This document shows, piece after piece, positions 8,752 through 60,780 of a stretch of 64,000 nucleotides of DNA. Position 1 is the stretch's first letter. The number at the start of each line of letters is the position of its first letter. The position numbers and the translations under genes were made by a program. The notes under the pieces were generated by a model that worked only from the letters and a program-made list of their open reading frames with translations, did not search any database and was not told where the DNA came from. Source of the stretch: Thermoplasmatota archaeon (GTDB taxonomy: Archaea; Thermoplasmatota; Penumbrarchaeia; JASLWR01); NCBI GenBank assembly GCA_030740765.1, contig JASLWR010000004.1:24873-88872 (forward strand), in the 5' to 3' direction.

Positions 8752-8772
8752 AAGTTGTGGGTATCATCCTCA

Positions 8773-8806
8773 GAAATATCAGTATGCACATGCATTCTGA
8801 TATTTC
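8773..8806 (-). terminator. 10-bp inverted repeat hairpin (gaaatatcag/ctgatatttc) in the spacer downstream of paralog C and upstream of paralog B.
   Basis: Perfect 10-bp stem with a 14-nt loop read directly; lies between the stop of 8879..13234 and the start of 4264..8751. Confidence 0.3.
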
Positions 8807-8878
8807 TACCGGATAAAACAACGTACAACCTGTATTTATATCTTATCCGAAGATGCAGCGGGAAGTCTTAAACCGAAG

Positions 8879-11800
8879 CTAGAGAGATTCGATCATTCCC
8901 TGTGTCTGGCAGACCGGGCAGGCGACCAGAGCCGGTAATTCCACTATCTCCGCTGAATAATTATTGCCGCAGGAATGACATTGCATGGTTATTTCATTCG
9001 TCACTGGAGCCGGGGCCCCCTCCGGAACCGATGGTATCGCTGGTGGAATCGCAGGTGGTGCAGTAGGCGATGCAACAGGTGGCGCAGGCTCTGGCGGTTT
9101 TGTCATGTCCTCGAGATATGCGAGATATGAATCAAGTTCGGACAGATCACCGGAACCCTCGGGTGGTACGGCAGGCACTTCCGGGATCATAGACGGGGTC
9201 GGCAGCGGTAATGGAAATACTGCTTCCACACCTGTAGGCGGCATTAGCGGCGGAGATATTGAAGGTGGTGCCGCTTCCATTGCATTGGGTGGTATTGGCG
9301 GTGCCGGTGATGAAGGTAGTGTATTATCCACTGGGGAAATATTTGTAGTATCAGCAATAGGCATCGGGGACCCAATATCGGGACCAAGTGGTGCCACGGA
9401 TGCCTGTATTGGAAATTCAAGACCTGTGAAAACCACTGGAGCGGGCGAAGGCTCGGGAGCAGGCGGAAGGGCCAATCTACCCAGTTCCTGCATTCCCTGG
9501 TCTGTTGAGAAAGTGGGAAGGAGATAGCTGCTGCCTCCTGCATATCCCGTATTCAAAGCTGCTGCCCCTGTCAGTGCCTGCCCGGGGGCGGCAGCCTGGA
9601 ACTGGACCGGGTTCACAAAACCGGGACCGGGAGCCAGCATCAAAGGCGGGGCTGGGGAACCCGGCATGCCGGCCATCGGCGCCGGCATAACTCCACCATA
9701 CCCTTGCACCAGCGGAGCATACTGCGCAGAATGCGGCCCCTGCCCGTATGGGGGCTGCCGGGGGAATGACGGCACTGGCGCCGCTACCTTCTCCTCTTTG
9801 GATTTCCTTTTTTTCCTGACTATGAAAAAGATGATCAGGATCAGTAATATGAGAAGCAGGATGCAGCCGAGTATAATTAAAAGCAGCGAAGAACTTTCTC
9901 CCAGTATCCCCGCACTTTCGGCAGGTACGATATCCGGCTCGCCCTCAGGGATCACGGCGCCGTTGTACGGATCGGTCCCGGATTCCCTCTCGAAACCGTC
10001 CGAGAAACCATCCCCGTCACTGTCCGTCTCGTAATCGGTCTTACTGCCGACCTCTATCCTTACATCCGTACTCTCGTTATAGCCGTGCCCGTCAAAAACG
10101 AACAACGTGATGATGTGTTTTCCGGGAGTCAATCTGCTGCCAAATAGGGCAAGGTGACTCATGGACTTGTTCGCGCTGACGTTGCTGGACCAGTAATAGC
10201 TAAGATTGTCCCCGTCCTCGTCGTATGAATCCGTAGCATCGAAATATATTTCCCTGTCGAATCTGAAATAGGATGCTTGATCAGGAGACGAAATTACTGC
10301 TTCCGGCCTGGAATTCACCCAAACTCTGTATGGTTTCGATATATTGTGACCTGTACCCACCTTATCGTCTGCACGCCAGCGGATGAAATTGTCCGGTCCC
10401 CAGTCGAACTCCAATTCCAGAAGAACCTGGGTAGGATTCCCGATGACCACGTTTACTACCTTTTTCCATGGTCTAAAACTATCATTGTCGCCTCCCGCCC
10501 CACTCGCCATGGAATACTCCACCGTTCCCGGGTCCACGCCTGAACCGTCATCCAATATCTCAACGAAACATTCAACAGTCTGCTGGTTGGAATATTCGTT
10601 CTCCTCCGGTGTGAAGGTGCCGAAATATACCGGCGAAGTATCTATTTTCAGATTGAATTTATCGGAAAGTGTGAAGGGATTGCCCACTATGTCCGTTCCC
10701 CTGAACATGATGTAGTTTTCGGTCCCTTCAGCATATGTGAATGTGACGCTTATCTCAAAGCCGTCTTCACCGGATTTGATTATATTTTCCGGTTCAATAC
10801 TCATCCACGAACGAAAGTCGGTTGGGCCCGACGTTGATATCCTCATTTCAAGACTCTCAGGGTCCACTCCGCTTCCTGCGTCGTTAACGGTGATCTTCGT
10901 AGTTATCGTTTTTTGGAGGTACCATTCCTCTTGTGGCGATATCGTTTGAGCGAAATTGACCGGAGTGTTGTCAATTTTTATATTTACGGGGGAGGATTCC
11001 ACGAAACCGTTTCCCGAAATGTCCTTGGCACGCCATTTTAGGTAATTGTTCTCCCCTTCGAGAAATACATATTTGACAACAGGTGTCATTGGTTCGGTCT
11101 TTTCGGGCATCCAGACGGGTATCCAGAGATCGAAACCGTGCACTCCGTTTTTGGACACTGAATATTCGATGGTGGCGCCATCGACACCGCCTCCCTTCCC
11201 ATCGTGGATATCAACCGAGCAATCGACATCCGTATGATTGTGCCATGAACCGTCCAAGGGAGTATAATTCGAAAAATAGGGTAATGACAGGTCAACCAGT
11301 ATCTCCGAGGCTGCGGCCCCACCGACATTCCCAACATTATCCACGCACCACACATATACCGGTACGGGTCCCTCGGGTAGCTCATTTATCTCGACCTCGG
11401 TTTCATTGGTAAACGATCCGTTCTCAGTGGTGGAATTATCCATAAGGGAATAATAATATCCTCTGAGACCCGAGGCAGGGTCTTCAACCTCATCCCAGGT
11501 GACGAAGACCTCTTGCTTGTTGGTATGTTCGGCGGACTTGCCTTTGAAGCTGTCGGGACGGCATTGGAGGTTCACCGGCGAAAGTGGCGCAGCCGCATCT
11601 ATTTTGAGGGGGAAATATAGATTCTTTGCACATACTCCTTCTTCCGGTATGTTCACTATGCTTATTTGATATTCCTCTTCCGGATCGGTGGCATTTCCGG
11701 ATATTGCCTCAATGGAAACGCTCTTACCGCTGGATTCGTTGTCCCACCATTCATTAGCCATTCTGTCCCGTACCACCACATCGAAGAAATTATCGTCCGG

Positions 11801-13234
11801 ATGAACATTCCCGGAACCTTCGTAGACCACGGTCATGTTGCTAAAAATCAGTTTTTCCTTCCCCCTTATCCAGTTTCCCCTATCAACAATACCCTGATAT
11901 TCACCCTCCACCACGGTCTCTCCCACGAGCTCAAGGTCATTTTCTACACGGAATAGATAAGGGAATCGATCAAGGTTGAATCTCCCGGAGCTTCCGGTTG
12001 TATTTATAAAACAATCTATAAGCTCCTCGTGAGGGAATGTGAAGTCTAGCACGAAGGAAAAATTTATCCACCATTTCTCCACATTATTGTTGGAAAACGC
12101 CGAATCACCCAGCAGTTCCAGATGATTTCCGAGGTCATGAACCTTGTAAAAGTTCTTTTGTGTTCCATTGAATCCGAGGCTTATGTTGGTGTTGTTGTAA
12201 TCTATGTAGATTCGGAGGTCGGAAAGATCGTCAAGAGATTCGAAGGTGGTGACGTTGATACCCAGTTTATAGGAACGGTACCCGGCATAGCATACTGCGC
12301 TTTTATTATCCGAATCAATCAGGTTGACCGATTCGGGCTCGGGGGGACGGGCCGTGGGGAAATTATCCTTAATCATATCGATATATTTTACCATCTGCAG
12401 AAGTTCGTTGTTTCCGCGGTTGCCCCAGTCGAAGGTCATCATGTTCATCATGACATACCCTTCGTCCAGCACGTATTCTATGAAAGCCGGTTTATTGTTC
12501 GCGTTGGACCAGAGAATGTCATTCCACTTGTTGGTTTCGGGATTTGTTCCGAGGTTCGCTCCACCGGAGTCCGCAAGCATACCCGGCGCGGTAACATAAC
12601 CGTGGCAGGTGGTACCCCAGCCCTGAAAATTATTGGCATTAAGTCCATTTCCGCCGTAGCCCTGACCGGTAATCCATTCGTGATCGTTATCAGCCACCGT
12701 AGGGTTCTCGTCGGTGTTGCCGGATTGCTGGTAACTACCGAAGTTCGAACCACCCGGTCCGGTAACATCCTGTCCGGAATTATGCGCGGCATTTGCAACG
12801 AAGATACCACCTTTCTTCACATATTTCTCGATAATACCCCCGTTCATCATTGTCTTTAATGATCCGTCTGCAATATCACCCTGGCAGCCAGTATAAATAG
12901 CATAATAGCGGTCGAAGAGGTACTCTGAATTGTGCTGGGCCGTTACCCCGGGCTGCTCCACATCAAAAGGGATTCCTCTGTTTGTTAGATGATTTTGTAG
13001 AGTGTTGGTACGATCCCCGCCCGAAGAGCAGACCAGCACCTTGTTCGCGGCTCTACTGGACCACTGTTTTCCGCCAATTGTGCCTGCATTTCGAATTTTC
13101 TCATCAATTGATTCAACGGTACTTATGGAATGGTCGCTCCAATCCGTGAGTAATGGGACACTAATTGCAGGGATTATCAATAGTATACAAAGTAACAGGG
13201 GAAGACTGCGTAAGTGGGAAATCACGCTTTTCAT
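8879..13234 (-). CDS. Giant single-pass surface protein, paralog C (1451 aa); same architecture, ThuA/GATase1-like head, C-terminal Zn ribbon MQCHSCGNNYSAEIVELPALVACPVCQTQG.
   Basis: Long ORF in the track. Signal peptide MKSVISHLRSLPLLLCILLIIPAISVP. Motifs FDATDSYDEDGDNLSYYW (PKD) and DSDGDGFSDGFERE. TM helix, then a P-rich tail. Confidence 0.85.
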   Translation of the reverse strand: MKSVISHLRSLPLLLCILLIIPAISVPLLTDWSDHSISTVESIDEKIRNAGTIGGKQWSSRAANKVLVCSSGGDRTNTLQNHLTNRGIPFDVEQPGVTAQHNSEYLFDRYYAIYTGCQGDIADGSLKTMMNGGIIEKYVKKGGIFVANAAHNSGQDVTGPGGSNFGSYQQSGNTDENPTVADNDHEWITGQGYGGNGLNANNFQGWGTTCHGYVTAPGMLADSGGANLGTNPETNKWNDILWSNANNKPAFIEYVLDEGYVMMNMMTFDWGNRGNNELLQMVKYIDMIKDNFPTARPPEPESVNLIDSDNKSAVCYAGYRSYKLGINVTTFESLDDLSDLRIYIDYNNTNISLGFNGTQKNFYKVHDLGNHLELLGDSAFSNNNVEKWWINFSFVLDFTFPHEELIDCFINTTGSSGRFNLDRFPYLFRVENDLELVGETVVEGEYQGIVDRGNWIRGKEKLIFSNMTVVYEGSGNVHPDDNFFDVVVRDRMANEWWDNESSGKSVSIEAISGNATDPEEEYQISIVNIPEEGVCAKNLYFPLKIDAAAPLSPVNLQCRPDSFKGKSAEHTNKQEVFVTWDEVEDPASGLRGYYYSLMDNSTTENGSFTNETEVEINELPEGPVPVYVWCVDNVGNVGGAAASEILVDLSLPYFSNYTPLDGSWHNHTDVDCSVDIHDGKGGGVDGATIEYSVSKNGVHGFDLWIPVWMPEKTEPMTPVVKYVFLEGENNYLKWRAKDISGNGFVESSPVNIKIDNTPVNFAQTISPQEEWYLQKTITTKITVNDAGSGVDPESLEMRISTSGPTDFRSWMSIEPENIIKSGEDGFEISVTFTYAEGTENYIMFRGTDIVGNPFTLSDKFNLKIDTSPVYFGTFTPEENEYSNQQTVECFVEILDDGSGVDPGTVEYSMASGAGGDNDSFRPWKKVVNVVIGNPTQVLLELEFDWGPDNFIRWRADDKVGTGHNISKPYRVWVNSRPEAVISSPDQASYFRFDREIYFDATDSYDEDGDNLSYYWSSNVSANKSMSHLALFGSRLTPGKHIITLFVFDGHGYNESTDVRIEVGSKTDYETDSDGDGFSDGFERESGTDPYNGAVIPEGEPDIVPAESAGILGESSSLLLIILGCILLLILLILIIFFIVRKKRKSKEEKVAAPVPSFPRQPPYGQGPHSAQYAPLVQGYGGVMPAPMAGMPGSPAPPLMLAPGPGFVNPVQFQAAAPGQALTGAAALNTGYAGGSSYLLPTFSTDQGMQELGRLALPPAPEPSPAPVVFTGLEFPIQASVAPLGPDIGSPMPIADTTNISPVDNTLPSSPAPPIPPNAMEAAPPSISPPLMPPTGVEAVFPLPLPTPSMIPEVPAVPPEGSGDLSELDSYLAYLEDMTKPPEPAPPVASPTAPPAIPPAIPSVPEGAPAPVTNEITMQCHSCGNNYSAEIVELPALVACPVCQTQGMIESL

Positions 13235-13390
13235 TCAATTCAACCTCTTTCCATACTGACCGACAGCCCTTACCGCCCGGCGTTGGTCTGCCTTTGGAGT
13301 CATATGATAACAAATCCATAGTCTTATGAATAAATAATGCTTTCGTTTGAAAAGGATAAAACCAGCACGAATATTCTCATCGATGCCGGA

Positions 13391-16300
13391 TCATATTGAT
13401 TCTATAACTCCTTGCGTCTGGCAAACCGTGCAGGTGACCAGTGCAGGGAACTTAGCAATCTCCGCTATATAGTTATTGCCGCAGGAATGGCACTGCATAG
13501 TAATTTTATTAGTCGGGGGAACCGGACTTTCTTCCGGAACCGGGGGTACGTCGGAAGGTGTTGGCTCCGGTGGCGGGGACAATCCACCCAGGGTAGTTAG
13601 ATATGTGTCGAGTTGGGATAAATCACTATCCGCTGAAGTGTCTATTGGAGGTACGCCAAGCACTAAAGATGAAGTGCTGCTAGGGGAAATAGTGGTGGGT
13701 TCCGGTGGAGCCGGGGGTGCTTCACCACTTAGCGGAATGGGTGCTGGAGGCGATTGGAAAGGGTTTTCCATTGCACTTACCCCAGGTAATAATGCAGGTT
13801 GGGCTGAAAGATCCGGAGCGGTCATCTGGGTTGGAGTGAACGCTCCAATCATTCCTTGATCTTCCGAAGGAGGTGGTCCCGGCGGTAAGGCCATTCTGTC
13901 GAGGTTCTGCGGCCCCTGATCGGTACTGAATAATGGTAATGAATATGCGGTACTGCCTGTCATCCCTGTCCCAGACTGACCGTAAAGAGCCAGCTGCTGT
14001 GGCTGAGTTTGCTGGACTTGATTCGGGCCGGAATATTGAGTGTTTGATATATCAGGTACTATCGACTGTATTAGAGGAGGATTTTGAGCTCCCCGCATCC
14101 CCATAACGGCTGCCTGATATTGCGCCATTTCCCCGTACCCTTTCTGCTCAACAGGAATAAATTGACCCTGGGGATAAGGATGCTGGGCCGGTCCGTACAT
14201 TGATTGCGGCATAGGTGACCGGATCGGAACCGAAACATCTCTCACTTCGTCCTTTTTTCTTCTCCTCACAATAAATATGATGACCAAAACCAGTATGGTC
14301 AAAAATAACACAATACCAAGAATGACGAAGAATAGCGAAGAGCCTCCTCCGAGTATGCCACCGCTTTCGGAGATGACGATATCAGGCTCGCCATCCGGGC
14401 TAATGGCACCGTTGTATGGGTCGGATCCTGATTCCCGTTCCAGTCCGTCTGAGAATCCGTCCCCGTCGCTGTCCCGCTGAAAATCGACCTGGCTGATCAC
14501 CTCTAGCTTAACTTTCGTACTCTCGTTGTAACCGTGTCTGTCCGAAACGAATAATGTGATCGTATGTTTTCCAGGGGCTAATCCGGCGCTGAAATAGGCG
14601 TCGAATCCGATTGAACGATTCACACTGACATTTGAGGACCAGTAATAGCTAAGATTGTCCCCATCCTCGTCACTTGAACCGGAAGCATCAAAAGTAATTT
14701 CGCTATCGAACCTGAAATACGACCCTGGATCGGGTGAGGCGATTGCCGCCTCCGGCCTGGAATTCACCCATACCCGGTATGGCAGCGATATGTTGAGCCC
14801 GGTACCCATCATGTCGTCGGCACGCCACCGGATAAAATTGTCATATCCCCAATCGAATTCCAGCTCTATCAGAACCTGCGTGGGATTTCCCGCAACAACA
14901 TTTACCACCTTTTTCCATGGCCCGAATATCTTTTCGTCGCCCCCCATCCCGGTGCCCCCTGCTCCATTTGCCACGGAATACTCAACCGTCGCTGGATCCA
15001 CCCCCGAACTGGCATCGAGTATCTGGATGAAACATTCCACCTTCTCGTTGTCTGCATATTCGTTCTCATCCGGTGTGAATAAACCAAAATAAATGGGAGA
15101 TGTATCGATTTTCAGATTGAATTTATCGGAGAGAGTGAAGAGATTGCCTACCATATCGGTTCCTCTGAACATAATGTAGTTATCCTTTCCCTCCGCGTAT
15201 TTGAAAGTCACTGTTATCTCAAAGCCGTCTTCACCGGATTCGCTGATGTTTTCGACATCTACGGACTCCCACCGGCCGAAATCGTTGGGGCTAGACGTGG
15301 ATATCCTTGCTCCAAGACTGTCCGGGTTCACACCGCTTCCAATGTCGTTAACCAATATCTTTGTGGTTATTTCTTCATGATCATACCATTCCACCTGAGG
15401 TGATATCAGCTTTGCAAAATTGATAGGAGTGGTGTCCACTTTTATATTGTACGAGGGTGATTCGACAAACCCATTTCCAGTGATGTCCTTTGTGCGCCAT
15501 TTAATATAATTTTCCTCGCCCTCCTGAAATACGTATTTGATATTTGGCACCATGGGTTCATTCAACTCGGGTATCCACGCGGGAATCCAGAAATCGAAAC
15601 CGTGCATCCCATCATTGGACACGGAGTACTCGATAGTGCTGCCGTCCACACCGGATCCAGTGCCATCATAAATCTCAATCGAGCAGTCGATATCAGTATG
15701 ATTGTGCCATGAACCATCCTCCGGGGTGTGATTCGAAAATACTGGCGGTGTCAGGTCCACAAGTATACCGGATGAGGCGGCCGTGCCGATATTTCCGACC
15801 TTGTCCACACACCAAACGTAAATTTCCGCGAATTCCTCGTTCAGTTTCTCGATCTTGACCTCTGTGACATTGGTGAATGTCCCGTTACCAGTTCCCGACT
15901 TATCCACCGGGGAATAATAATAGCCCATCAGACCCGATGAGTGGTCCTCAACCGGATCCCATGTGACGAACATCTCGGCGCGATTGGTATGCTCGGTCTC
16001 CTTGTCCTTGAAATCATTGGCATGGCACTTTAAGTTGACGGGGAAGAGAGGCGGGTCCGCATCTATTCTTAGTGGAAAGGTCAGATTTGTCATGCAAATG
16101 CCTGTTCCGGGTATGTTCTCGATGGTGATGAGATATTCTTCTTCCGGGTCCGTATCGTTTCCGGAAGTGATGTTTATCTCGATATTTTCTCCCATGCTCT
16201 CGTTATCCCACCAGGCGCTCCCGTTATTATCGGCAACCCTGACATCGAAATAGTCATCATCGGGGTAGATGTCCGGAGCACCTGCATATCGTACCTTGAG

Positions 16301-17620
16301 ATTGCTGACCTTAATCCTTTCCCTGCCCCGTATCCAATCGTTCTTTTTCAACTCACCCTGATATTCACCTGTAAGATCGGGAATACCAACCAGCTCCAGG
16401 TCATTCTCGACCTTGAAAAGGTGCGGAAAGCGGTCCGTTCTTACAATTCCCGTGATGGCAGCAGTACTGATATAGCAGTCCACCAGTTCTTCATGTGGGA
16501 ATGTGAAATTGAAAATTACTGAAAAATTCAACCACCACCGCTCGACCCCGTCCGTGGAAACCTTGGAATCGTCAACATTCAATTGAACGTGCCCGTCCAA
16601 GTCCTGATATTTGTAGAAGCGAGATTGTGTCCAGTTGTAGCATAGTGTAGCATTGGTAGTATTATAATCAAGGAAAACCTTGACCTCGGAAACCTCGGTA
16701 AGGTCCCTTGCGGAGGTGACATTCACGCTGAGGGTGTAGTTTCTATGACGGGCATAGCATATATTATTCCCGTCACCCTGTCCCAAAATGGCTGCGTTAT
16801 CGGTATAGGCCGTGAGGTCCACTTCCAGCCAACATGCTACTGGCGTCCCACCCTGGTTCTGACCAACCGTGAGAAGAACTTCGGAGCCGAGCGGAATGGT
16901 GGTTATCTCACCATGGGACGCGGAACTACCGGAGAACGATGGCCGGTTCATGTTTCTAACCATGGGATGATTCACGGATGCCACGAAATTATGGCTATTA
17001 CCATTTCCATTTGTCCTTACACCGAAAGGACCGGGGACACCCCTGGACCACCGGCGTTGGTAATTCGTACCGAACATGTCTATCAATATTCCACCGTCGT
17101 TCACGTATTTCTCCATTGAAGGGACCAGTGACTCCATCTGGTTCAGATGCTGGTTCGGCTGGTACTCGGAAATAATGATCATCCGGTAAATGTTCGGATC
17201 GAAATCGTTTGCATTGATCCCGCCAGCGCTTTTCTGGGTGAATTGTATTCCTCTGTTGTTCATCTCCCGGCGCCAGCCGTCAGACCATCCCTGGTGATCC
17301 CATATGATAAGTATGGCTCCCGAATCCGCATGGGTGGGCCATAACCAATCGAAAGTATTGATGATAAAATAACGGGAATGTTGGCCGTTGCCGTAGCCGT
17401 AACTTGCTATGGTCCCCGTGACAAAATAAATGCCTTTGTCACCAGCGGTACGTTTGTTGGACGAGATGGGCGGAGGCTTTGAGGGGCTCTTTACGTTCAA
17501 CCCCACATCGTGGTTTTCGCTGAGAAGTATTTCAGAGCAAATAGTAAGATATCCCGTTCCTATGAAACACAAAACAACAGCTATCGACACCACCACGGGC
17601 CATGGATTCGTTCTACTCAT
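13391..17620 (-). CDS. Giant single-pass surface protein, paralog D (1409 aa); same architecture, C-terminal Zn ribbon MQCHSCGNNYIAEIAKFPALVTCTVCQTQG.
   Basis: Long ORF in the track. Signal peptide MSRTNPWPVVVSIAVVLCFIGTG. Motifs FDASGSSDEDGDNLSYYW (PKD) and DSDGDGFSDGLERE. TM segment, then a P/Q-rich tail. Confidence 0.85.
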   Translation of the reverse strand: MSRTNPWPVVVSIAVVLCFIGTGYLTICSEILLSENHDVGLNVKSPSKPPPISSNKRTAGDKGIYFVTGTIASYGYGNGQHSRYFIINTFDWLWPTHADSGAILIIWDHQGWSDGWRREMNNRGIQFTQKSAGGINANDFDPNIYRMIIISEYQPNQHLNQMESLVPSMEKYVNDGGILIDMFGTNYQRRWSRGVPGPFGVRTNGNGNSHNFVASVNHPMVRNMNRPSFSGSSASHGEITTIPLGSEVLLTVGQNQGGTPVACWLEVDLTAYTDNAAILGQGDGNNICYARHRNYTLSVNVTSARDLTEVSEVKVFLDYNTTNATLCYNWTQSRFYKYQDLDGHVQLNVDDSKVSTDGVERWWLNFSVIFNFTFPHEELVDCYISTAAITGIVRTDRFPHLFKVENDLELVGIPDLTGEYQGELKKNDWIRGRERIKVSNLKVRYAGAPDIYPDDDYFDVRVADNNGSAWWDNESMGENIEINITSGNDTDPEEEYLITIENIPGTGICMTNLTFPLRIDADPPLFPVNLKCHANDFKDKETEHTNRAEMFVTWDPVEDHSSGLMGYYYSPVDKSGTGNGTFTNVTEVKIEKLNEEFAEIYVWCVDKVGNIGTAASSGILVDLTPPVFSNHTPEDGSWHNHTDIDCSIEIYDGTGSGVDGSTIEYSVSNDGMHGFDFWIPAWIPELNEPMVPNIKYVFQEGEENYIKWRTKDITGNGFVESPSYNIKVDTTPINFAKLISPQVEWYDHEEITTKILVNDIGSGVNPDSLGARISTSSPNDFGRWESVDVENISESGEDGFEITVTFKYAEGKDNYIMFRGTDMVGNLFTLSDKFNLKIDTSPIYFGLFTPDENEYADNEKVECFIQILDASSGVDPATVEYSVANGAGGTGMGGDEKIFGPWKKVVNVVAGNPTQVLIELEFDWGYDNFIRWRADDMMGTGLNISLPYRVWVNSRPEAAIASPDPGSYFRFDSEITFDASGSSDEDGDNLSYYWSSNVSVNRSIGFDAYFSAGLAPGKHTITLFVSDRHGYNESTKVKLEVISQVDFQRDSDGDGFSDGLERESGSDPYNGAISPDGEPDIVISESGGILGGGSSLFFVILGIVLFLTILVLVIIFIVRRRKKDEVRDVSVPIRSPMPQSMYGPAQHPYPQGQFIPVEQKGYGEMAQYQAAVMGMRGAQNPPLIQSIVPDISNTQYSGPNQVQQTQPQQLALYGQSGTGMTGSTAYSLPLFSTDQGPQNLDRMALPPGPPPSEDQGMIGAFTPTQMTAPDLSAQPALLPGVSAMENPFQSPPAPIPLSGEAPPAPPEPTTISPSSTSSLVLGVPPIDTSADSDLSQLDTYLTTLGGLSPPPEPTPSDVPPVPEESPVPPTNKITMQCHSCGNNYIAEIAKFPALVTCTVCQTQGVIESI

Positions 17621-18467: not shown

Positions 18468-21400
18468 ATGAGAAAAATAATGTTATTTACGGTTATTCTG
18501 TTGTTGATGGCGCCTCTCAATGTATTTTTTACAGCCCACCGTTCATCGTTTGTCTCTGACACCGGTTTCGGTTCCAATGACGGGAATAGCAAACTCCATG
18601 TACAAAGTGGAGGTAGAGATGCGACCGCGAATCCTTTTGATTCAGTATTTTTCGATGATTTTGAAAGCGGTTTCACGAATTGGACCCATTCGGGTGTCCA
18701 GATCAATCAGGAAGCCAATAATGAACTGAGCCCAGTGAACGCGGCCAACCTAGACGGCAATGGGGATACTCTTACTTCCAATGCCATTGATCTCCGGGGT
18801 TATGGGTTCGGCCATTTGGAATACGGGGTTCAACCCGGCGGAGGAAGTGATCCGCCAGAGGTGGGGGATGATCTGACAGCCTGGATGAACCTGCAAACCA
18901 TCGGCTGGCATAGGGTAAACATCAGCAAGGGAACCGGTAACCCAAGACCTGATTTCTTGACCGTGAACGTCGCGCTTCCCAAAACCGCTTTCCATGCGGG
19001 TTTTCAGATACGTTTTACCACTCCTGCAATTGAAGCAAATGCCGATGATTGGTATATTGATAACGTGCGTGTAAGCGCATCTGAGGGATCTAATTTATTT
19101 TTTGATGATTTCCCCCCAAATCCTCCCGACAATGCCAAATGGCCAGTATCACTGGGAACACCAGTGGTAAATACAAATGCCCAGGCCATTCCAAGCACGG
19201 GGAACTCTCTGAACCTGGATGGTTCCGGCGATACACTACAATCAGGGACCATCAATTTGGGGAGGGTGAGCGAGGCATATATATTTTATTTCTGGGAGCA
19301 GGGAGATGGAAGTAACGGCAACCGGGACGAACCGGAAAATATGGATAATCTCAAAATCGAATATTATATCGACGATCCGGCCCCTCTATGGTTAGAGGTG
19401 GAGGTTACATCACAGGAAAGAGGAGGCGACCCCGGCAGAGCGTTTTTCATGCTTTCCACTTTTTCGTTACCGTGGGACGCTCTTCATGACAATTTCAAAT
19501 TCAGATTACATACCCCTCAAGGAGATAATAATCTTGATGACTGGTTCATTGATGACATAGGATTGAATGCGGCACCCTCCTATTCCGTCCCTTTCGAGGA
19601 TAATTTTGATGACGGACAACTTGCCGCCGCGAAATGGCCCGGCGGGGACCGAAAAGGGTCACCCCAAGTAAACACCAGGGGCGCGAATGAACCCTCGCTG
19701 ACCTATTCTCTCAATCTGGATGGCAGCGGTGATACGGTTGTGTCAGAAAAAATCGACACGTCCTGGGCACCATGGGCCAGCCTTACGTACTGGTGGCAGC
19801 AAGGGGGAGGGGGGGACGAACCGGAAGCCAATGACGATCTCATCGTGGAGATAAACGTGAGCTCAGGGTGGCGTGTTCTCAAAAAACACCTGGGTGCAAC
19901 CGCAGGAACCAATACATTTACGATGGAGGAATTCGTTCTTCCCCAGGACGCAATTTACGACAAATTCAGGGTTAAGTTCAGCACCACCCAGGGCCAGAAC
20001 AGCAAGGATGACTGGTTTATCGATAACGTTAGCGTGAGAAAGGGGAAAGTAGAAAATCCTTCAGATAAGTTTCAGGATTTTTTCGAATCGGGGAACCTCC
20101 TATCGAACTGGGAAATATTGGAGGGTAATCCACAGATCAACGCGGACGGTCAAAATGAACCCTCGCCATCATCTTCTCTTAATCTCGACGGTGAAGGCGA
20201 CATGATTAGCAGCGGAGGGCTTAATCTAGGACAAGCTGCTACGGCTGTTCTCAGCTTCGATTGGCAGCAGAAAGGCGGGGGTGACGATCCGGAAAACGGG
20301 GACGATCTCTATGCAGACATACTTCTCATGAAGACGGGATGGTTTAACATCTTTCAAGCAAAGGGAGTGGACCAGGCCAATAACTTCTATACCAACTTCT
20401 CATTCGTGCTACCCCAGACTGCTCTCCACGGCAATTTTAAAGTCAGGTTCAGAGTAGGCTCCGCGGAAGGGGTAGGGAAGGACGATTGGTTCATCGACAA
20501 CGTATTGATAAAGGGTAAAGATGGCATGGGATTCAAAAGGGTGGGTATCTACAACGAGTATTCCAACAAGGAGAAGGAAGGAATCAACCCGGCGAAGGCA
20601 CTCAGTTCCCAGTTCACCGATTACAAACTGTACCTTTTCGATGACTACCGTTATGCAGCAGAAAATCTCAGCTCTCTTGATTTCTTCATCATCTGTGAAC
20701 AGGAAAGCCTGGCAGCAGGGAAGGCGGGGGACATTCATAACCACTGGAAGAATTCCATGGCGGATTTACTTAACTATACCGGAAGGGTAGTGGTGCTTGA
20801 CGGCGGGTCCGGAAATTCCAGACTTTTGGTGAGCTCATTTCTAAGCTCCACCGGTCATCAGAATATCCCGGGAAATCCCAACGTGGACAATGACATGCCA
20901 AATCATCCAATTTCCGTTGGAATTCCAAATATCTTCGCTGGCCCTTCGGAAGTGGCTCGTTTTACCGGCGTCAATGGGCGAGAGGTGATGACCGTGAACA
21001 ACAACCCGGTGGTTGTTGAGAAGAGATATGCACGGGGATCGGTGATGTTATTTGGTCTCGATTACTCCGAATGGAATTCGTTCACCGAGAAATTACTTTT
21101 CAATGCTTTAAACTGGTCTGTGATCAATAAGATCCAGGTCAACAAACCCACCATAGCAGAAAATGATGTGTATGCGGGTCTGCCGGTAATGGTCTCTGTG
21201 GATGTGAGCGATACCATCGGACCCGAAGATGTTAGCAAGATCACCTTGGAATTCAACGACACTGGCGTCAGTTTTGAATACGAAGATGGAAATGTAAATA
21301 AATTTGGCAATAATAATGGAACCGTTTCTCTGGATTCATGGCATACCGGAAAAAAAGTGGAGAACCTTACACTCAACCTTAACCTAACATTCGGGTGGGA

Positions 21401-24347
21401 CTTTCCGGTGGGGGTGCCCGTAGATGTCATGGTGAAAGGTTATGCGTCAATGGCCGATAATAATGAACACGAAAACGAAACCTTAGGTCTCTTTACCGTT
21501 AAGAACGAGGTTGCTTTCTTTGGAACGCCGGTGGCAAAAAACAGTACTGGGGACGTGATCCCCTCCGGTGGTTACTGCAAGGGGGGTGACGTGATCACTC
21601 TAACCGGTATAAAGGTTGTTTACAGTGGAACCGAGGACAAATACCCGCCTGACGAGCAATTTGACGTCAACGTCTGGGGTGATGGTGGTGACGACCATTG
21701 GGTGGACATGGTTTCATCTGGAGAGGAGATATCCATCGAAGCCACAATGCCTAATAGTGGTATGAATAATTATTCCTTCAAATTTAACCTGTCAGGTCCT
21801 GCCAGGGCTAATTCGGATCCGGTGGCGTTTTATTACGTGAAAATAGATAATGTCACGCCTCGTCTTTCGAATCCTTTCCCAGAAGAGGGGATGTGGTTTA
21901 ACAGCACCAATGTGAAGTGTAGTATCAATATCAACGACACCGAACAATCCGACGACCTGAGCGTGGTAAAATGCTCATACTCCATTGATGGCAACCAAAC
22001 CTGGTCCAATTGGGTGAATGTGGATTCGATCGTTGATGGTGTGGCGGAAAAGACCCTGACCCTTGCTCAGGGAAAGGTGAATCTCGTGAAGTGGAATGCC
22101 TGGGACCGTTTGGGTAATGGACCCATCGAGTTCGGCCCCACCCCCGTATGGATCGATAGCGAAGGTGTGGAGTTCAGTGATTTTGAACCTTTAGGCAAGA
22201 TCGAGGATCTTATGCCCACATGCACGATCAATGTCTCAGATAGCTTGTCAGGGGTCGGCGATCAGGTATGGGTGCGACAATCAACCAATGGTGGAAATAC
22301 ATGGGATGACTGGACTCAACCGGAAAAAACACCAAACGACGATGGATTCGGACTTTCATACCGAGCCACTTTGCAGGAAGGAAGTGGCAACCGCATCCAG
22401 TGGAAAGTTGAGGATGTCGCGGGAAATGTGAATACCAGCGAATTCAAAATAACCGTGGATACGGAGTTCACCATCCCCGAGGTGGAACTGACCTTTCCGG
22501 GGAACGGGACCAACACGAGTTTGAGGCCCAAGCTGGAGTGGAGCCTGGCCAAAGGGGGTGCAGGAGTGAACTTCAAACTGTTCCTTTCGCTAACGGCTGA
22601 TATAGATACCGATGCCGATACACCGAGAACCGAGACCGAGAACCTATCATATACATTTGACGAGGATATTGCCGATATGACCACCTATTACTGGTCGGTA
22701 ATTCCGGTCAAGGACAACGACGTGGGTATCTGTAAAAGCGGGGTCTGGTCATTTACGGCCATGGAGGGGACTCTACCCGAGCTAAAACTGCAATCACCAG
22801 GGGATTCGGACAAGGCAGAAATCCGTCCCACATTGAGATGGGATTTGACCAGGGCAAAGGAGGGCGTTAAGTATCGTGTCTATGTAAGCAATAACAGTGT
22901 TATCGATACAACAAACGTGTCAGGAGCGAAAAAGATCTTGGATGACAAATCGTATGAATTTGTGGAAGATCTGGTGGATGGCGAGACATATTACTGGATA
23001 GTGATTCCCTTTATTACGGAAGGGGGGATCGACTCTGATGGAAGTTGCCTAAGTGGGGTCTGGTCCTTTATTATAGATGCGAACTTCACCATAAAATGGG
23101 AATTTGATATTGCGGTGGAGCACGAAGCAAAGGATGCCGAGTTCGAGGTCGGGGATCACATGAACTTAACCGTAATAATAACGAATTTGGGTAATTCCCT
23201 CGACATTTACAACCTCTCCATCAGCGAAGATTGGAACTACACCGCTATAGGCTCCCTCGATGTAGCTGACAACGCTACCGGCGACATCAAAATATCAATA
23301 GTACTGCCGCTGGACATCACTCTTGGAAATCACACTTTGGTTATTACCGTTACGTCAACCGGCAATAACACAATAGAGACCGAAATGGTTTCATATGCAA
23401 TAATACAGCCTGGAGGGGTGAATCCTCATGATGACACGAACGAGACGGGAGGAGGTTTCTTTTCGGATATCCCCATGCTCTGGATCATTATCGCCATCGT
23501 GGTGCTCTTCCTGATCATCGTGATAATCGTGATCATCGTTAGAAGACGGAACGATGACTGGGATGACGACGAGGACGACGACGATTACGATGACGAATAC
23601 GACGAGGACGAAGATGAAGAAGAGGAGGATTTCGGTCGTATTCGTAAGGATGGAGCCTCACCCATGCTGGCAACTGGCGCCCAGATGGAACCGTGTACCA
23701 ACACCAACTGCCGTAAACCCATCCCGACAAACACTATGTTCTGCACACATTGCGGAGTGAAACAGGGCCAGCAAGCCGAGACTCCTACAACCGCTTCGAA
23801 GCCGGTTGAAACTGAGATAGAGATCGAGGACCTGGATGTGGAAGAGGATTCGGCCGTTACCCTGGATGAGCTTATGAACCGAGCTTCCCAGTTAATAGAC
23901 ACTCCCAAAAAGGAGGAGCCCGTAACGGAAACTGTTGACGAGCCGGATATAGAGGTCGTTGGCGAGGTAAAGGAAGATAAAGGACTTACTATCGATGATG
24001 TTACCTCCGTGGACCAGCTACTGGACATCATGGTAGTGGAGAGCGAGCCATTCGATGATGACGATGAAGACATTATCGAGGTCGTTGCCACCGCGCCCTT
24101 GGAGGAAGATGACGATGAAGCTTTACCATTACCCACGGTCTCCGCTGCCTCGCTTTACGAGGAGGACGACGACGAGGATCTGGCAGCACCCGAACCCATT
24201 CTTTCCATAGAGGATGTGATGATGGAGATCGCCGGGGAGCCTGACCTTGATGAACCCCCGGAACCGGATCGCGCACCTCCGGGCCTAGCGCCTCCGGCTC
24301 ATGCACCACCGGGTAATGCCCCGCCGCCTCCGCCTCCCCCGGAGTAG
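18468..24347 (+). CDS. Giant surface protein (1959 aa). Signal peptide, four tandem MAM-like ~150-aa repeats, ThuA/GATase1-like region, further beta-rich domains, one TM helix, poly-acidic stretch, Zn ribbon, acidic region, poly-proline C-terminus.
   Basis: Each repeat begins F(D/E)DxFExG and ends DDW(Y/F)IDN(V/I), with LNLDGSGDT in between. TM segment MLWIIIAIVVLFLIIVIIVIIV. Acidic stretch RRRNDDWDDDEDDDDYDDEYDEDEDEEEED. Zn ribbon CTNTNCRKPIPTNTMFCTHCG. C-terminus PPGNAPPPPPPPE. SD-like aggtgg lies 10 nt upstream. Confidence 0.85.
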   Translation: MRKIMLFTVILLLMAPLNVFFTAHRSSFVSDTGFGSNDGNSKLHVQSGGRDATANPFDSVFFDDFESGFTNWTHSGVQINQEANNELSPVNAANLDGNGDTLTSNAIDLRGYGFGHLEYGVQPGGGSDPPEVGDDLTAWMNLQTIGWHRVNISKGTGNPRPDFLTVNVALPKTAFHAGFQIRFTTPAIEANADDWYIDNVRVSASEGSNLFFDDFPPNPPDNAKWPVSLGTPVVNTNAQAIPSTGNSLNLDGSGDTLQSGTINLGRVSEAYIFYFWEQGDGSNGNRDEPENMDNLKIEYYIDDPAPLWLEVEVTSQERGGDPGRAFFMLSTFSLPWDALHDNFKFRLHTPQGDNNLDDWFIDDIGLNAAPSYSVPFEDNFDDGQLAAAKWPGGDRKGSPQVNTRGANEPSLTYSLNLDGSGDTVVSEKIDTSWAPWASLTYWWQQGGGGDEPEANDDLIVEINVSSGWRVLKKHLGATAGTNTFTMEEFVLPQDAIYDKFRVKFSTTQGQNSKDDWFIDNVSVRKGKVENPSDKFQDFFESGNLLSNWEILEGNPQINADGQNEPSPSSSLNLDGEGDMISSGGLNLGQAATAVLSFDWQQKGGGDDPENGDDLYADILLMKTGWFNIFQAKGVDQANNFYTNFSFVLPQTALHGNFKVRFRVGSAEGVGKDDWFIDNVLIKGKDGMGFKRVGIYNEYSNKEKEGINPAKALSSQFTDYKLYLFDDYRYAAENLSSLDFFIICEQESLAAGKAGDIHNHWKNSMADLLNYTGRVVVLDGGSGNSRLLVSSFLSSTGHQNIPGNPNVDNDMPNHPISVGIPNIFAGPSEVARFTGVNGREVMTVNNNPVVVEKRYARGSVMLFGLDYSEWNSFTEKLLFNALNWSVINKIQVNKPTIAENDVYAGLPVMVSVDVSDTIGPEDVSKITLEFNDTGVSFEYEDGNVNKFGNNNGTVSLDSWHTGKKVENLTLNLNLTFGWDFPVGVPVDVMVKGYASMADNNEHENETLGLFTVKNEVAFFGTPVAKNSTGDVIPSGGYCKGGDVITLTGIKVVYSGTEDKYPPDEQFDVNVWGDGGDDHWVDMVSSGEEISIEATMPNSGMNNYSFKFNLSGPARANSDPVAFYYVKIDNVTPRLSNPFPEEGMWFNSTNVKCSININDTEQSDDLSVVKCSYSIDGNQTWSNWVNVDSIVDGVAEKTLTLAQGKVNLVKWNAWDRLGNGPIEFGPTPVWIDSEGVEFSDFEPLGKIEDLMPTCTINVSDSLSGVGDQVWVRQSTNGGNTWDDWTQPEKTPNDDGFGLSYRATLQEGSGNRIQWKVEDVAGNVNTSEFKITVDTEFTIPEVELTFPGNGTNTSLRPKLEWSLAKGGAGVNFKLFLSLTADIDTDADTPRTETENLSYTFDEDIADMTTYYWSVIPVKDNDVGICKSGVWSFTAMEGTLPELKLQSPGDSDKAEIRPTLRWDLTRAKEGVKYRVYVSNNSVIDTTNVSGAKKILDDKSYEFVEDLVDGETYYWIVIPFITEGGIDSDGSCLSGVWSFIIDANFTIKWEFDIAVEHEAKDAEFEVGDHMNLTVIITNLGNSLDIYNLSISEDWNYTAIGSLDVADNATGDIKISIVLPLDITLGNHTLVITVTSTGNNTIETEMVSYAIIQPGGVNPHDDTNETGGGFFSDIPMLWIIIAIVVLFLIIVIIVIIVRRRNDDWDDDEDDDDYDDEYDEDEDEEEEDFGRIRKDGASPMLATGAQMEPCTNTNCRKPIPTNTMFCTHCGVKQGQQAETPTTASKPVETEIEIEDLDVEEDSAVTLDELMNRASQLIDTPKKEEPVTETVDEPDIEVVGEVKEDKGLTIDDVTSVDQLLDIMVVESEPFDDDDEDIIEVVATAPLEEDDDEALPLPTVSAASLYEEDDDEDLAAPEPILSIEDVMMEIAGEPDLDEPPEPDRAPPGLAPPAHAPPGNAPPPPPPPE

Positions 24348-25096
24348 AAAATTATCCGACTTTTTTCCAAGCCGTACGGCTAAGTTGTGTAAAGTAAAAT
24401 AATATTTATTTCGGGTGGATACGGTCTTCGTTTTGGCCCCTGCTCTAATAGTTGTGTAGACACAATTTTAGAAAATCCTTAATATTACAAAATCCTTAAT
24501 TATTATATCCCCCATTTCTCTGGTGTTCCCGCCTGCGTGAATTTGGGAACCCTTCTTTGATATTGTCAATGGTGCAAATCTCGACGACCCTAATGGCTCG
24601 TCTGACTTGCCCGCTCCTGATGTATGGTACATACATCTGTATTTGCGGGGTACTGTGACACCAGTAGGTATCACTGTATTTGCAGGGACGTAACCCTGCA
24701 AACCGTTTCCCCGCAAACGGGGTGCGGTCAAGTTTCGAAAATAATTCGAAGCCTTTCGAGTAACGATTTGACGAGTCACGCCTCGGCAAATCCAGGCGTG
24801 TCGTAAGATAGGCCAGGACTCGAAAGGACCAGATGCATCTCTGATGCATAAGGGTTTGCAGCTTGACAATCCTTGACGACCCTGACGGCTCGTCTGGCAT
24901 GACAGGGCGTTACCTGTCATGTTTCGCGGGATCGCGGGCCAGTAGATCTCCGGAGGAAATCGATGGCTCAGCAATGCCCAAAGGGTATTGCGTAGCCTGA
25001 CCGCACACTTGCGGGCAGGGATAGGAACATCTCTGATGTTTCAAGACGAAGTGGGAGCCCGAAGGGCCGATTCCGCTTCATCTAATAATAATCAAG

Positions 25097-26656
25097 GTGA
25101 ATGTTTTGTCCATGGAAGAGAAGATCGAGGAGCTAAGGAGAAAGAAAGAGGAAATGAAGCTGGGTGGCGGTAAGGAGCGTATTGTTCAACAGCACAAAAA
25201 GGGTAAATTAACGGCAAGGGAAAGGATCGATCTATTGTTGGATAACGGCAGTTTCATAGAGATGGATGCATTCGCGCTTCATCATTGCACGGATTTCGGT
25301 ATGGAAAAGAAACGCGTGCTTGGAGATGGTGTGGTAACAGGTTACGGCAACATCGACGGACGGCTGGTTTATGTATTTTCACAGGACTTCACGGTATTCG
25401 GCGGTTCACTGGGTTGGAAATTTGCCGAAAAGATCTGCAAGGTCATGGATATGGCCATGAAGAACGGCGCACCTGTGATCGGCCTTAATGATTCGGGTGG
25501 TGCCCGGATCCAGGAAGGAGTAATATCGCTGGGCGGTTATGCCGAGATATTTTTCAGAAATGTCATGGCGTCCGGAGTGATCCCTCAGATCTCCGCAGTA
25601 ATGGGACCATGCGCGGGAGGGGCGGTCTATTCACCCGCCATAACGGATTTTATCTTCATGGTGAAGGAAACCAGTCACATGTTCATAACCGGTCCCAACG
25701 TAATAAAGGCTGTTACCGGGGAGAAGGTCAGTTTCGAGCAGCTTGGGGGAGCCATGGCCCACAACGAGAAGAGCGGCGTCGCGCACTTTGCGGCCGAGAA
25801 CGAGGAGAACTGCATCGAATACATAAAGACCCTTTTTTCCTTTCTTCCGTCGAATAACATGGACGATCCACCTCGAGTAATGGTCGGTGACGATCCGAAC
25901 CGGATGGACACGGAACTGCTGAAGATAATTCCGGACGAGTCTGACAAACCCTATGACATGAAAGACATAATCCGCCGAGTGGTGGACAACGATGAATTTC
26001 TTGAGGTACATAAGCATTGGGCAATGAATATAATAGTGGGTTTTGCAAGACTCGACGGCTACTCAGTTGGTATTATCGGTAACCAGCCGAATGTTCTGGC
26101 CGGTACTCTCGATATAAATTCCTCGACGAAGGCTGCGCGATTCGTCAGGTTCTGTGATGCTTTCAACATTCCCCTCTTGACCTTCGAGGACGTTCCGGGT
26201 TTCCTTCCAGGCACTTCCCAGGAATACGGCGGAATAATCCGAAACGGGGCCAAATTATTATATGCATACAGCGAGGCCACTGTTCCAAAGATGACCGTTA
26301 TAACCCGAAAGGCATACGGTGGGGCCTATGACGTTATGTGCTCGAAACACATACGGGCGGATATAAACTTTGCATGGCCATCGGCAGAGCTTGCGGTAAT
26401 GGGCCCGGGCGGTGCGGTAAACATAATATTCAGAAAGGAAATTCAGGCGGCCGAGGACCCAGAAAGAAGGACTGATGAACTAGTCGCCCAGTACCGTGAA
26501 AAATTCGCCAATCCCTATATTGCAGCCGAGATGGGTTACATTGATGACATAATCGAGCCTCAGGAGACCAGACCCCGGATAATAAACGCTTTAAAGACCC
26601 TGTTGAACAAAAGGGAATCCCGCCCGGCAAAGAAACACGGAAATATACCTTTGTGA
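25097..26656 (+). CDS. pccB: Acyl-CoA (propionyl/acetyl-CoA) carboxylase, carboxyltransferase subunit
   Basis: N-terminal [39 protein letters not shown]. Carboxyltransferase domains throughout ([22 protein letters not shown]). 519 aa. Confidence 0.9.
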
Positions 26657-47022: not shown

Positions 47023-47337
47023 GTGAAAGAATGTCAAGGTGTGGAGGGATCGGATGATGAAAGATTGAAGAAAATCTGCGGCCTATCTGAAAAGAGATCA
47101 TCCCATAATATGTGGAGACCGATTATCCTGTTCGGCGTGATAATTCTTTTATTTGTTGTCTCGAGATCATTGAACTTTGAGGGAAAAATCCTCGAAATGC
47201 GAGATTGGATCCATTCTCTTGGGATACTCGGCCCCTTTCTATTCACAGTGGTCTACATAACAGCCACCATAACTGCAGTACCTGGAACGATCATGACCAT
47301 TGCCGCAGGATCCGTTTTCGGGTCTCTAGTGTCTTGA
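47023..47337 (+). pseudogene. DedA/TVP38 (SNARE-associated) family membrane protein, truncated after ~104 aa
   Basis: DedA-type N-terminal region ends ...IAAGSVFGSLVS* well short of full length; the IS630 remnant follows immediately. Confidence 0.5.
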
Positions 47338-47387
47338 CAACTTAATTAATAGACATCCTTTATAAACCAACAATCTATTATGTTGTC

Positions 47388-58417: not shown

Positions 58418-58737
58418 AATTAATTTTTAGCTTAATGTTTTTTATATCGGGCCGACGTTCGCCTTAGGAGCCGCCCGTAGGCATTGCCGAGGGCGGCCAC
58501 TTCGTTCCGCACAATTAAAATTGTGCTCCGCCTTCGATTTCCGAGGGAAATCTACAGGCTCAGGGGTATCCGTAGGCAAACTTGCCGAGGATACAAATGA
58601 ATCTTTGATTCATTGAGTATCTTTGATACCCCGCAGTGAACGGGAGTCGGCCCTCTTTAGTAATATAATTTCGATCGTTCTCCAGCAACCCCCCAGTACT
58701 GAATACACACGAATCGAATGATAAGTGGGATATCACC

Positions 58738-60774: not shown

Positions 60775-60780
60775 TACATC

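Follow-up and report, generated by a model that had tools for sequence, protein, structure and literature searches.

What is the long and intricately folding stretch of DNA that stands before a carboxylase operon in a Thermoplasmatota archaeon? The window analysed here is a stretch of 64,000 nt (64 kb; contig JASLWR010000004.1, positions 24,873 to 88,872), and the region that raises the question, 24348-25096, lies between a 1959-aa open reading frame (ORF; 18468-24347, +) and the pccB-accC-accB operon. An earlier note, made from the letters of the sequence, had described this region as non-coding and highly structured and had proposed that it is either a non-coding RNA or a leader. We find that its core is a 522-nt element, W1 (24560-25081, +), which is probably one copy of an interspersed, non-autonomous repeat, a mosaic of hairpins resembling REP sequences (the extragenic palindromes that are repetitive) and bacterial interspersed mosaic elements (BIMEs) or MITEs (transposable elements of miniature size with inverted repeats), and which would be only incidentally a leader of pccB. 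The data fit such an interspersed, non-autonomous family better than they fit a dedicated leader or a family of RNA genes, and the family has the features of a known kind of sequence, the interspersed palindromic mosaic repeats.

The description of the region as non-coding and highly structured was borne out. Dinucleotide shuffles of it fold with a minimum free energy (MFE) of -218.3 +/- 8.8 kcal/mol, whereas the region itself reaches -291.2 (z = -8.3 for the + strand and -8.9 for its complement), and in a GC-corrected scan with 200-nt windows no stretch of strongly over-folded windows in the 64 kb is longer than 24500-25100. The three local ORFs (24468-24974 and 24496-24900 on the - strand, 24624-24806 on the + strand) are without a Pfam match, and a scan for tRNA and tmRNA found none. 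All of the hairpins that had been named appear in the MFE fold. The direct repeats exist as well, 24575-24609 and 24867-24901 being 80% identical over 35 nt; the second copy lies exactly at 24875-24897, while the first, gacgaccctaatggctcgtctga, is truly at 24583-24605, 2 nt from where it had been placed. The pair ctgtatttgcgggg / ctgtatttgcaggg was found at 24637-24650 and 24674-24687, and CATCTCTGATG is present twice, at 24836 and 25028. Rfam, searched for families including riboswitches, leaders, RNase P, the signal recognition particle (SRP) RNA, OLE, GOLLD, ROOL, HEARO, ribozymes and group I/II introns, gave no hit at gathering score in the whole window; within 24200-25250 there was only noise up to E = 10, the best matches reaching 12-19 bits against thresholds of 45-110, none of them near threshold. 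The partial resemblances to RNase P and SRP RNA that had been remarked upon are not real, because neither family is matched even at E <= 10.

A weak BLAST self-match of W1 at 48113-48204 revealed a second copy, W2 (48114-48208, +), which is a minimal, 95-nt copy of two hairpins placed 8 nt upstream of the ATG at 48217. The 281-aa ORF that begins there has no Pfam match, and a look-up of its protein returned no record. W2 and W1 share an exact 16-mer, GATATTGTCAATGGTG, at the 5' end and CCGATTCCGCT at the 3' end, together with the further landmarks AGCTTGACRAT and GTT(T)CGCGGRATCGC. W2 folds as two hairpins with z = -4.5 and scores 106 bits (E = 4.5e-22) with R1, a covariance model that we built on 11 distinct minimal copies. 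When metagenomes were scanned with ATTGTCAATGGTGNNAANCTC, 73 loci were recovered (designated here by L numbers), and 25 of the 73, on contigs of marine metagenomes, extend into the family amid unrelated flanks; 18 of these 25 come from one sample (Ga0187827), where they lie on 16 contigs. With R1, four additional copies came to light that do not contain the exact search pattern, and the copies with different flanks now number at least 27, from 95 to 522 nt in length. The same model found no copies in ~130 kb of other Thermoplasmata genomes or in the loci of relatives with 89% identity. The family was also unmatched by BLAST in phage and plasmid records, and in viral contigs a 15-mer gave 120 random matches, none extending into the family, while two specific patterns gave 0.

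In the minimal unit, the first hairpin, SL1, reads ATATTGTCAA...CUCGAC-AAAAA-GUCGAG...TTGACAATGT, the second, SL2, reads GCGGAATCG-..CCC-GAA-GGG..-CGATTCCGC, and a 5-nt tail of TGAAT or TTCAT covaries with GTT or GTG ahead of SL2. The larger copies carry extra hairpin modules at fixed points, which are the interior of SL1, the junction of SL1 with SL2 and the loop of SL2, and some of these modules stand alone or inverted elsewhere, including small units of the form CCY-GTAG-hairpin-GARGG.

The structure of this unit is conserved among its copies. Across 17 copies aligned to R1, with 34 pairs, 96.4% of the cells are paired and 7 of the 34 pairs have changed on both sides, in an alignment that was itself fitted to the model. 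Not one of 500 shuffles matched these values, and controls with slid partners were only 31-43% paired. G.U pairs outnumber A.C in the helices by 39 to 7 (23 to 7 without the near-invariant U2.G pair), and in W1 and W2, as in W3 and W5, two further repeat-built regions of the window, the + (element) strand gains 5-13 kcal/mol more from folding than the complement does. From these two asymmetries we infer selection on one single strand, be it RNA or single-stranded DNA. Covariation, to which the earlier note had looked across related genomes, is present across paralogous copies and not across orthologues; the contigs from the same population (L001-L009) are useless in this respect because they are 99.9% identical in DNA.

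A second line of evidence comes from the orthologous sites. The pccB product is an acyl-CoA carboxylase carboxyltransferase (Pfam Carboxyl_trans, E = 1e-207), followed downstream by a biotin carboxylase and then a biotin carrier protein, as judged by Pfam. Its start is the ATG at 25112 and not the GTG at 25097; public assemblies record only the 514-aa product, which is present exactly in 11 contigs from various samples. In a species-level collection of genomes, the pccB genes closest to this one, at 86-87% amino acid identity, belong to metagenome-assembled genomes of Thermoplasmatales and Thermoplasmata, from which we conclude that the host is an archaeon, an uncultivated marine member of the Thermoplasmatota; the closest metagenomic relatives reach 89% (L283, L285), with L010 and L011 at 86-87%. 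In all four of these nearest relatives, the spacing between an AT-rich, promoter-like box and the GGTGA/ATG is only 45-75 nt, and the window with W1 removed aligns to them save for ~37 extra bases hugging the element on both sides. An insertion of ~560 nt, apparently lineage-specific, can therefore be placed between the pccB box and the ribosome-binding site. No family copy is found at the pccB site of these four, and W1 searched against 89 pccB loci from genomes gave chance matches only.

The remaining parts of the region upstream of pccB flank the repeat. The promoter-like box, AAAATCCTTAATTATTATATCC (24464-24510, +), lies outside W1 and is kept upstream of pccB in the relatives, its ACAAAAyCCTTAA..TTAT being conserved in the alignment with L285, L283, L010 and L011; an archaeal promoter of the type with TATA box and B recognition element (BRE) is inferred from it. 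Within the box there is a 17-nt tandem duplication, AATTTTAGAAAATCCTT (24464-24480) / AATATTACAAAATCCTT (24481-24497), which is a single copy in L283 and L285. The 5' flank, GCCTGCGTGAATTTGGGAACCCTTCTTTG (24531-24559, +), falls in a gap of the alignment with L285 and L283 and is not in the family consensus; with its preceding bases it pairs as a hairpin, GUUCCC...GGGAAC. On the other side, a 3' flank, CTAATAATA (within 25082-25111, +), is absent from the relatives in the alignment, and a conserved Shine-Dalgarno-like AAGGTGA (25094-25100, +) precedes the ATG. If the old promoter is still used, the pccB mRNA would gain a very stable leader of ~575 nt, and translation of pccB would in that case rely on the GGTGA site that has been kept downstream of W1. 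Alternatively, the A/T-rich stretch 25082-25092 could serve as a TATA-like box of its own, new to this site and ~25 nt upstream of the ATG.

The contexts and ends of the other copies also bear on the nature of the family. Classified by their neighbouring ORFs at about 17 loci, roughly 6 copies are tandem-sense, 5 tandem-antisense, 4 divergent and 1 convergent, and those of L281, L252, L230 and L216 are robustly antisense to both of the long ORFs beside them. For most copies the surrounding region includes a gene start, and the neighbours are archaeal housekeeping genes (such as TFIIB, proteasome, RIO1 and ribosomal protein S8e). The similarity among copies sets in precisely at the first paired base, and no shared promoter was found upstream of the copies. 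Terminal inverted repeats were not found either, the ends ATATTGTCAATGG... and ...CGATTCCGCTGAAT being complementary at only about 5 of 12 positions, with inverted repeats only within the hairpins. The flanks of 18 copies show no target-site duplication beyond a conserved AT at both ends, and this AT belongs to the helices; 5' of the element there is a weak TGN-AT preference, with T at -3 in 10 of the 18 and G at -2 in 11. All five elements of the window are on the + strand, and an orientation linked to replication was considered; it was dropped because copies lying on the same metagenome contig disagree (in L247, in L252, and between L250 and L279).

W1 is the largest, most nested and most elaborate copy of the family known. 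This composite A-type repeat spans the family consensus, beginning with its first base (ATATTGTCAATGGTG) and finishing with its last (CGATTCCGCTTCAT), and its ends and internal landmarks are common to W2 and about 25 metagenomic copies. A fold that enforces both family helices costs only 2.1 kcal/mol (-237.7 vs an MFE of -239.8). Every module of W1 turns up in the same place in some of the other copies, different segments matching different copies at 87-99% identity. Domain 1 (24562-24870; all coordinates within W1 are on the + strand) is the equivalent of SL1 in the 95-nt core and is closed by helix P1, in which ATTGTCAA (24562-24569) pairs with TTGACAAT (24863-24870), extended by 24571-24581 with 24852-24862. 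P1 is present in the unconstrained MFE fold, and in the core alignment its equivalent is 96.6% paired, positions 16:42 and 17:41 showing compensatory changes. Within it, module C (24583-24602) is the hairpin GACGA-CC-CUAA-GG-C-UCGUC, that is, the first of the direct repeats, and homologous hairpins take the same position in L211, L247, L252, L266 and L267. Module D (24604-24733) follows, a helix of the MFE fold between GACUUGCCCGC (24604-24614) and GCGGUCAAGU (24724-24733) that encloses the four hairpins of module E (24615-24721); L211, L247 and L252 have the D helix without module E, and this part of W1 resembles L267 550-694 (24595-24738, 87% identity) and L266 (24559-24650, 90% identity). 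The apical hairpin UUCGAA-AAUAA-UUCGAA (24734-24750) is by its position the counterpart of CUCGAC-AAAAA-GUCGAG in the core. Module F (24751-24849) consists of a 10-bp helix of CCUUUCGAGU (24752-24761) with ACUCGAAAGG (24818-24827), inner hairpins that include CACGCC...GGCGUG, and the hairpin AUGCAUC-UCU-GAUGCAU at 24833-24849, and it is found in other copies as well, in L216 (24746-24802, 97-100%), L279 (24819-24927, 93%) and L273.

Between the two domains lies module G (24871-24923), which combines a hairpin GACGA...UCGUC (24875-24894), the second of the direct repeats, with a second one, CAUGACAGG-GCGUUA-CCUGUCAUG (24898-24921), and which stands at the same position in L252, L266, L276 and L279. 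Domain 2 (24926-25076) corresponds to SL2 and is closed by GCGGGAUCG (24926-24934) with CGAUUCCGC (25068-25076). Among the copies, the SL2 helix is 97.3% paired, with compensatory changes from GCGG/CCGC to GCAG/CUGC. In its loop, W1 carries a nested B-type module (24935-25067), made up of CCA-GUAG-hairpin-GAUGG, GGCUCAG, further hairpins, ..GAAGUGGGAGCC and CCC-GAA-GGG. The filling of this loop is graded across the family, from empty in W2 and L276, through the addition of a GTAG-tagged mini-hairpin in L252 and of GGCUCAG-hairpin-GUGAAACGGGAGCC in L273 and L275, to that of further hairpins in W1 and L247. The stretch 24954-25059 is 99% identical to L216, and two parts of the module occur elsewhere inverted relative to their host element, 24949-24994 in L267 and 24996-25024 in L211 172-200 (100% identical).

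W1 is also variable within its population. Nine contigs of the same population differ at 5 sites in the 522 nt of W1, compared with 14 in about 14 kb of flanks, a density ~10x higher. The variants are 24811 G/C, 24819 C/T, an insertion of AG at 24944, 25057 G/A and 25060 C/A; C24819T turns a G-C pair of module F into G.U, and both G25057A and C25060A break pairs. At 24811 and 24819 the minority and majority alleles go together in four contigs, a linkage that gene conversion from another copy could explain. When the signal-peptide-peptidase (SPP) protein encoded in the window was looked up, all contigs proved to belong to one population, without polymorphism.

These findings can be brought together in a mechanism that we propose tentatively, on the analogy of known repeats, and only as a possible one. 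The family may be non-autonomous selfish DNA that is copied through a single-stranded intermediate, and a structure-specific enzyme encoded elsewhere in the genome may recognise the hairpins of one strand. Successive insertion of such units into one another's loops would then build mosaics such as W1. We propose the handling of single-stranded DNA hairpins because the family lacks terminal inverted repeats and target-site duplications, has strand-specific hairpins that tolerate G.T, and is oriented independently of genes, four features of the REP/REPIN-RAYT and IS200/IS605 elements, which are copied in this way. The thought that the region might consist of degenerate remnants of a mobile element comes close as to the kind of material, which is mobile-element-like, but the copies are intact rather than degenerate.

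Several points weigh against W1 being a copy of a non-autonomous mobile repeat. The copies were counted on contig fragments and not per genome, and the covariation is less significant than the shuffle control makes it seem, because the copies are related by descent. W1 is present in each of the five population contigs that cover the site (99.9% identical), so no polymorphism of presence and absence was seen, and an exact empty site is not definable because the 'empty' relatives are only 86-89% identical in the pccB protein. A recurrent transposase is absent among 104 neighbouring ORFs and 30 ORFs of the window (in the top 25 families listed), the one transposase fragment of the window, which is IS630-like, has no homologue near other copies, and a regex search over 733 kb found no ORF with an HUH-Y1 motif, a gene like the REP-associated tyrosine transposases (RAYTs) included. 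RAYTs are usually single-copy. Furthermore, the left and right ends of IS200/IS605 elements resemble one another, whereas the two end hairpins here, SL1 (apex CUCGAC-AAAAA-GUCGAG) and SL2 (GCGGAAUCG...CGAUUCCGC), are unlike each other. Membership of the REP/REPIN-RAYT or of the IS200/IS605 group is not established. Finally, a function at the level of RNA would account just as well for the strand asymmetry and for the unpaired motifs that are conserved.

That function is the alternative that survives best, although we consider it unlikely. It holds that the copies, or modules such as CCY-GUAG-hairpin-GARGG with its 5'-GUA/GA-3' internal loop, are functional RNA structures (a protein-binding site, a transcript stabiliser, a processing signal or a small RNA), and that they are multicopy because many transcripts need the function. 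The excess of G.U over A.C, the better folding of the element strand and the compensatory changes in the helices would all be expected of it; the unpaired GUAG, GGCUCAG and GUGAAACGGGAGCC are kept across copies whose stems differ, and many copies (W1, W2, L219, L247, L275 and L276) lie 2-57 nt upstream of a co-oriented start. However, about a third of the copies are antisense to both neighbours, similarity starts at the first helix with no conserved promoter upstream, modules are inverted inside other copies, and no Rfam family matches. The elevated variation of W1, with two of its variants breaking pairs, also speaks against it. The GUA/GA internal loop may be like the sarcin-ricin/loop E motif; a reading of the GUAG module as a K-turn was ruled out by its base pairing on inspection of the sequence. 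With the large structured RNAs of bacteria OLE, GOLLD, ROOL, HEARO and raiA, W1 shares a length of ~500 nt, many hairpins and optional expansion segments. Those RNAs, however, are single-copy genes with orthologous conservation and none of them matches W1, whereas its family is multicopy, independent of orientation and absent at orthologous sites.

A dedicated cis-regulatory leader of pccB-accC-accB, riboswitch-like or an attenuator, along the lines of the leader proposed in the earlier note, is by now largely refuted and very improbable. In its favour, W1 shares the strand of pccB, has the promoter-like box on one side and the ribosome-binding site on the other, and is extreme in its structure. 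From that position the region is probably transcribed as a leader, and this much of the proposal stands; the part that does not is a locus-specific non-coding RNA or regulatory leader. W1 is no dedicated pccB leader because it is missing from the site in all four nearest relatives while its family stands beside unrelated genes at >20 loci, and the lack of an Rfam match and the high polymorphism point the same way.

We give just as little credence to a classical MITE derived from an IS630-like element and mobilised as double-stranded DNA by a DDE transposase. Its appeal comes from a truncated IS630-like transposase (47331-47908, +; HTH_32, HTH_29, HTH_23 and HTH_28 at 47388-47846), which has a frameshifted continuation, QEYRERMYDILELYEK, up to 47908, lacks its remainder, and lies 210 nt upstream of W2. 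The left end of this element, TA|GTGTCTTGACAAC, appears from its sequence to interrupt a membrane-protein ORF that ends at ~47336. It shares the 8-mer CTTGACAA with the 3' arm of P1, and SL1 taken alone resembles two short inverted repeats. Yet the 8-mer match is within chance expectation and is accompanied by no other likeness to the family, no IS630-like sequence lies near any other copy, the element as a whole has neither terminal inverted repeats nor a TA duplication, and the asymmetry between G.U and A.C would be unexpected for a double-stranded substrate. Chance or neutral intergenic sequence, a replication origin or some other unique DNA site can be dismissed, for although an AT-rich stretch (24360-24510) adjoins the repeats, such a reading is refuted by a multicopy family with compensatory changes and by the z of -8.3, and there is neither an orc1/cdc6 gene nearby nor a turn in the cumulative GC skew.

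If W1 is a copy of a non-autonomous repeat, as we think probable, it can be asked which known system it resembles most. With the REP/BIME (REPIN-RAYT) sequences it shares short palindromic units that stand in many copies in intergenic DNA, mosaics with units in both orientations, stems that vary by complementary changes, and a tolerance of G.T on one strand. A subclass of the units has a 5' GTAG beside the stem, as do the GTAG-REPs (PMC3733652). The pattern CCY-GTAG-hairpin-GARGG gave 21 hits, about 18 of them hairpins, in which at least 7 different stems occur, whereas control tags gave 2-12; a looser count of tag plus hairpin showed no enrichment, and the 95-nt core is without a GTAG/CGTC tag. 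The family differs from the REPs in its archaeal host, in a dominant unit that is a 95-nt pair of hairpins with defined ends rather than a palindrome of 20-40 nt, in modules that are nested in loops rather than strung side by side, in copies that are mostly near gene starts rather than downstream of genes, and in the lack of a RAYT-like gene in the 733 kb. REP/RAYT systems have been described only from Bacteria, and in Archaea only IS200-type Y1 transposases have been reported (PMC3733652, PMC6006769).

The palindrome-associated transposable elements (PATEs) derived from IS200/IS605 are known in haloarchaea, and their parent family is present in Archaea (PMC6006769). Like the present family, they have no terminal inverted repeats and no target-site duplication, and carry strand-specific hairpins near both ends; the weak 5' preference for TGN-AT and the TGAAT or TTCAT at the family's end may add to the likeness. 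Here, however, the left hairpin has no sequence relationship to the right one, there is only a weak target motif, the GACGA...TCGTC hairpins of W1 (24583, 24875) are direct repeats but internal rather than subterminal, and there is no tnpA or tnpB near the copies and no match to an omega-RNA type of Rfam. The pneumococcal BOX elements (boxA-boxB(n)-boxC; PMC3049150), like other modular repeats of bacteria, have conserved end modules, a variable number of internal ones, a stable predicted fold and an intergenic location, and in these, as in our family, the mobilising enzyme is unknown. They differ in showing no sequence similarity to our family, in which the modules are hierarchically nested and invertible and the host is an archaeon. 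Classical MITEs are likewise small, non-coding, multicopy and intergenic and can change the expression context of a neighbouring gene, but their defining terminal inverted repeats and target-site duplication are absent here. Archaeal MITEs have been reported as SM1-4 in Sulfolobus and from Halobacterium and Haloquadratum (PMC10969869), and a large MITE census makes no mention of Thermoplasmatota (PMC11602168).

The window holds five repeat-built regions within its 64 kb, W1 and W2 being two of them. W3 (58449-58656, +) is a stand-alone B-type element of about 205 nt with z = -6.9, closed by GGGCCGAC/GUCGGCCC and located between genes for an endonuclease III-like protein and a signal-peptide-peptidase. 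It contains two GTAG-tagged mini-hairpins, an inverted copy of a GTAG-GAUUUCC hairpin, and GGCUCAG...GCAGUGAACGGGAG, which is also found inside W1, and it has modules in common with L216, L247, L252 and L267. W4 (60771-60890, +) and W5 (about 4365-4600, +) represent a C-type repeat, CAUCYGCAGGAAUCC...GAUGAAACC-hairpin-GGUGAUUCAU; they are 88% identical to each other over 42 nt, and both also match L215, L216, L266 and L273. W4 starts at the stop codon of the gene at 58738-60774, and W5 lies within the predicted 3' end of a 1495-aa ORF on the opposite strand (4264-8751). Five giant ORFs of 1409-1959 aa are also encoded in the window (4264-17620, -; 18468-24347, +; 52447-56703, -). The three within 4264-17620 are paralogues, 51-57% identical in alignment; the giant ORFs have only weak Pfam matches (TSP3_bac, Reelin_subrepeat-B, Big_13), and similar ones recur beside family copies in metagenome loci (a cluster of 8).

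Some metagenomic copies occur close together. In L247 two of them (8877-9021, -, and 9083-9173, +) are head-to-head, 62 nt apart, and in L223 two (2105-2261 and 2517-2593, both -) are in tandem, about 250 nt apart. L273 has a partial copy with SL1 only (6508-6612) and, 2.5 kb downstream in the same orientation, a full composite copy (9092-9252); between the two are a small ORF, a DUF5615/PIN-like gene (toxin-antitoxin-like) and an AAA_14/DUF4143 ATPase, and no transposase. The contig of L255 (PVBE010474160.1) and the analysed part of Ga0187827_10000664 in L266 both come to an end within a family copy, from which it seems that such repeats break metagenome assemblies made from short reads.

Much is known of interspersed palindromic repeats in Bacteria, whereas in Archaea they are, to our knowledge, barely described, and in marine Thermoplasmatota undescribed. 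A more far-reaching view, which we think improbable, would take one of two forms. The window could sample an archaeal counterpart of REP/BIME, in which several families of strand-specific hairpins (A-, B- and C-type units and GTAG mini-hairpins) coexist, insert themselves into each other's loops, account for about 2% of the local sequence and are moved by an enzyme acting on single-stranded hairpins, or else the modules could be RNA building blocks, with protein-binding internal loops spread across many transcripts. If true, either form would be the first such system described in Archaea, and would offer a tractable case in which structured repeats build an RNA-like architecture of 500 nt stepwise. 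For the discovery of non-coding RNAs there is a practical consequence, in that mosaics of repeats score as excellent candidates for novel RNAs (z about -8, with covariation); because they score like structured RNAs, such mosaics can mislead searches of metagenomes unless their multicopy status is checked. Because its minimal unit is clear, its elaborations are graded and its helices show compensatory changes, the family should be useful for studying how structured repeats spread and how folds are assembled by nested insertion. In the host population itself, W1 may alter the expression of this central carboxylase operon, because it separates the promoter from the start codon.

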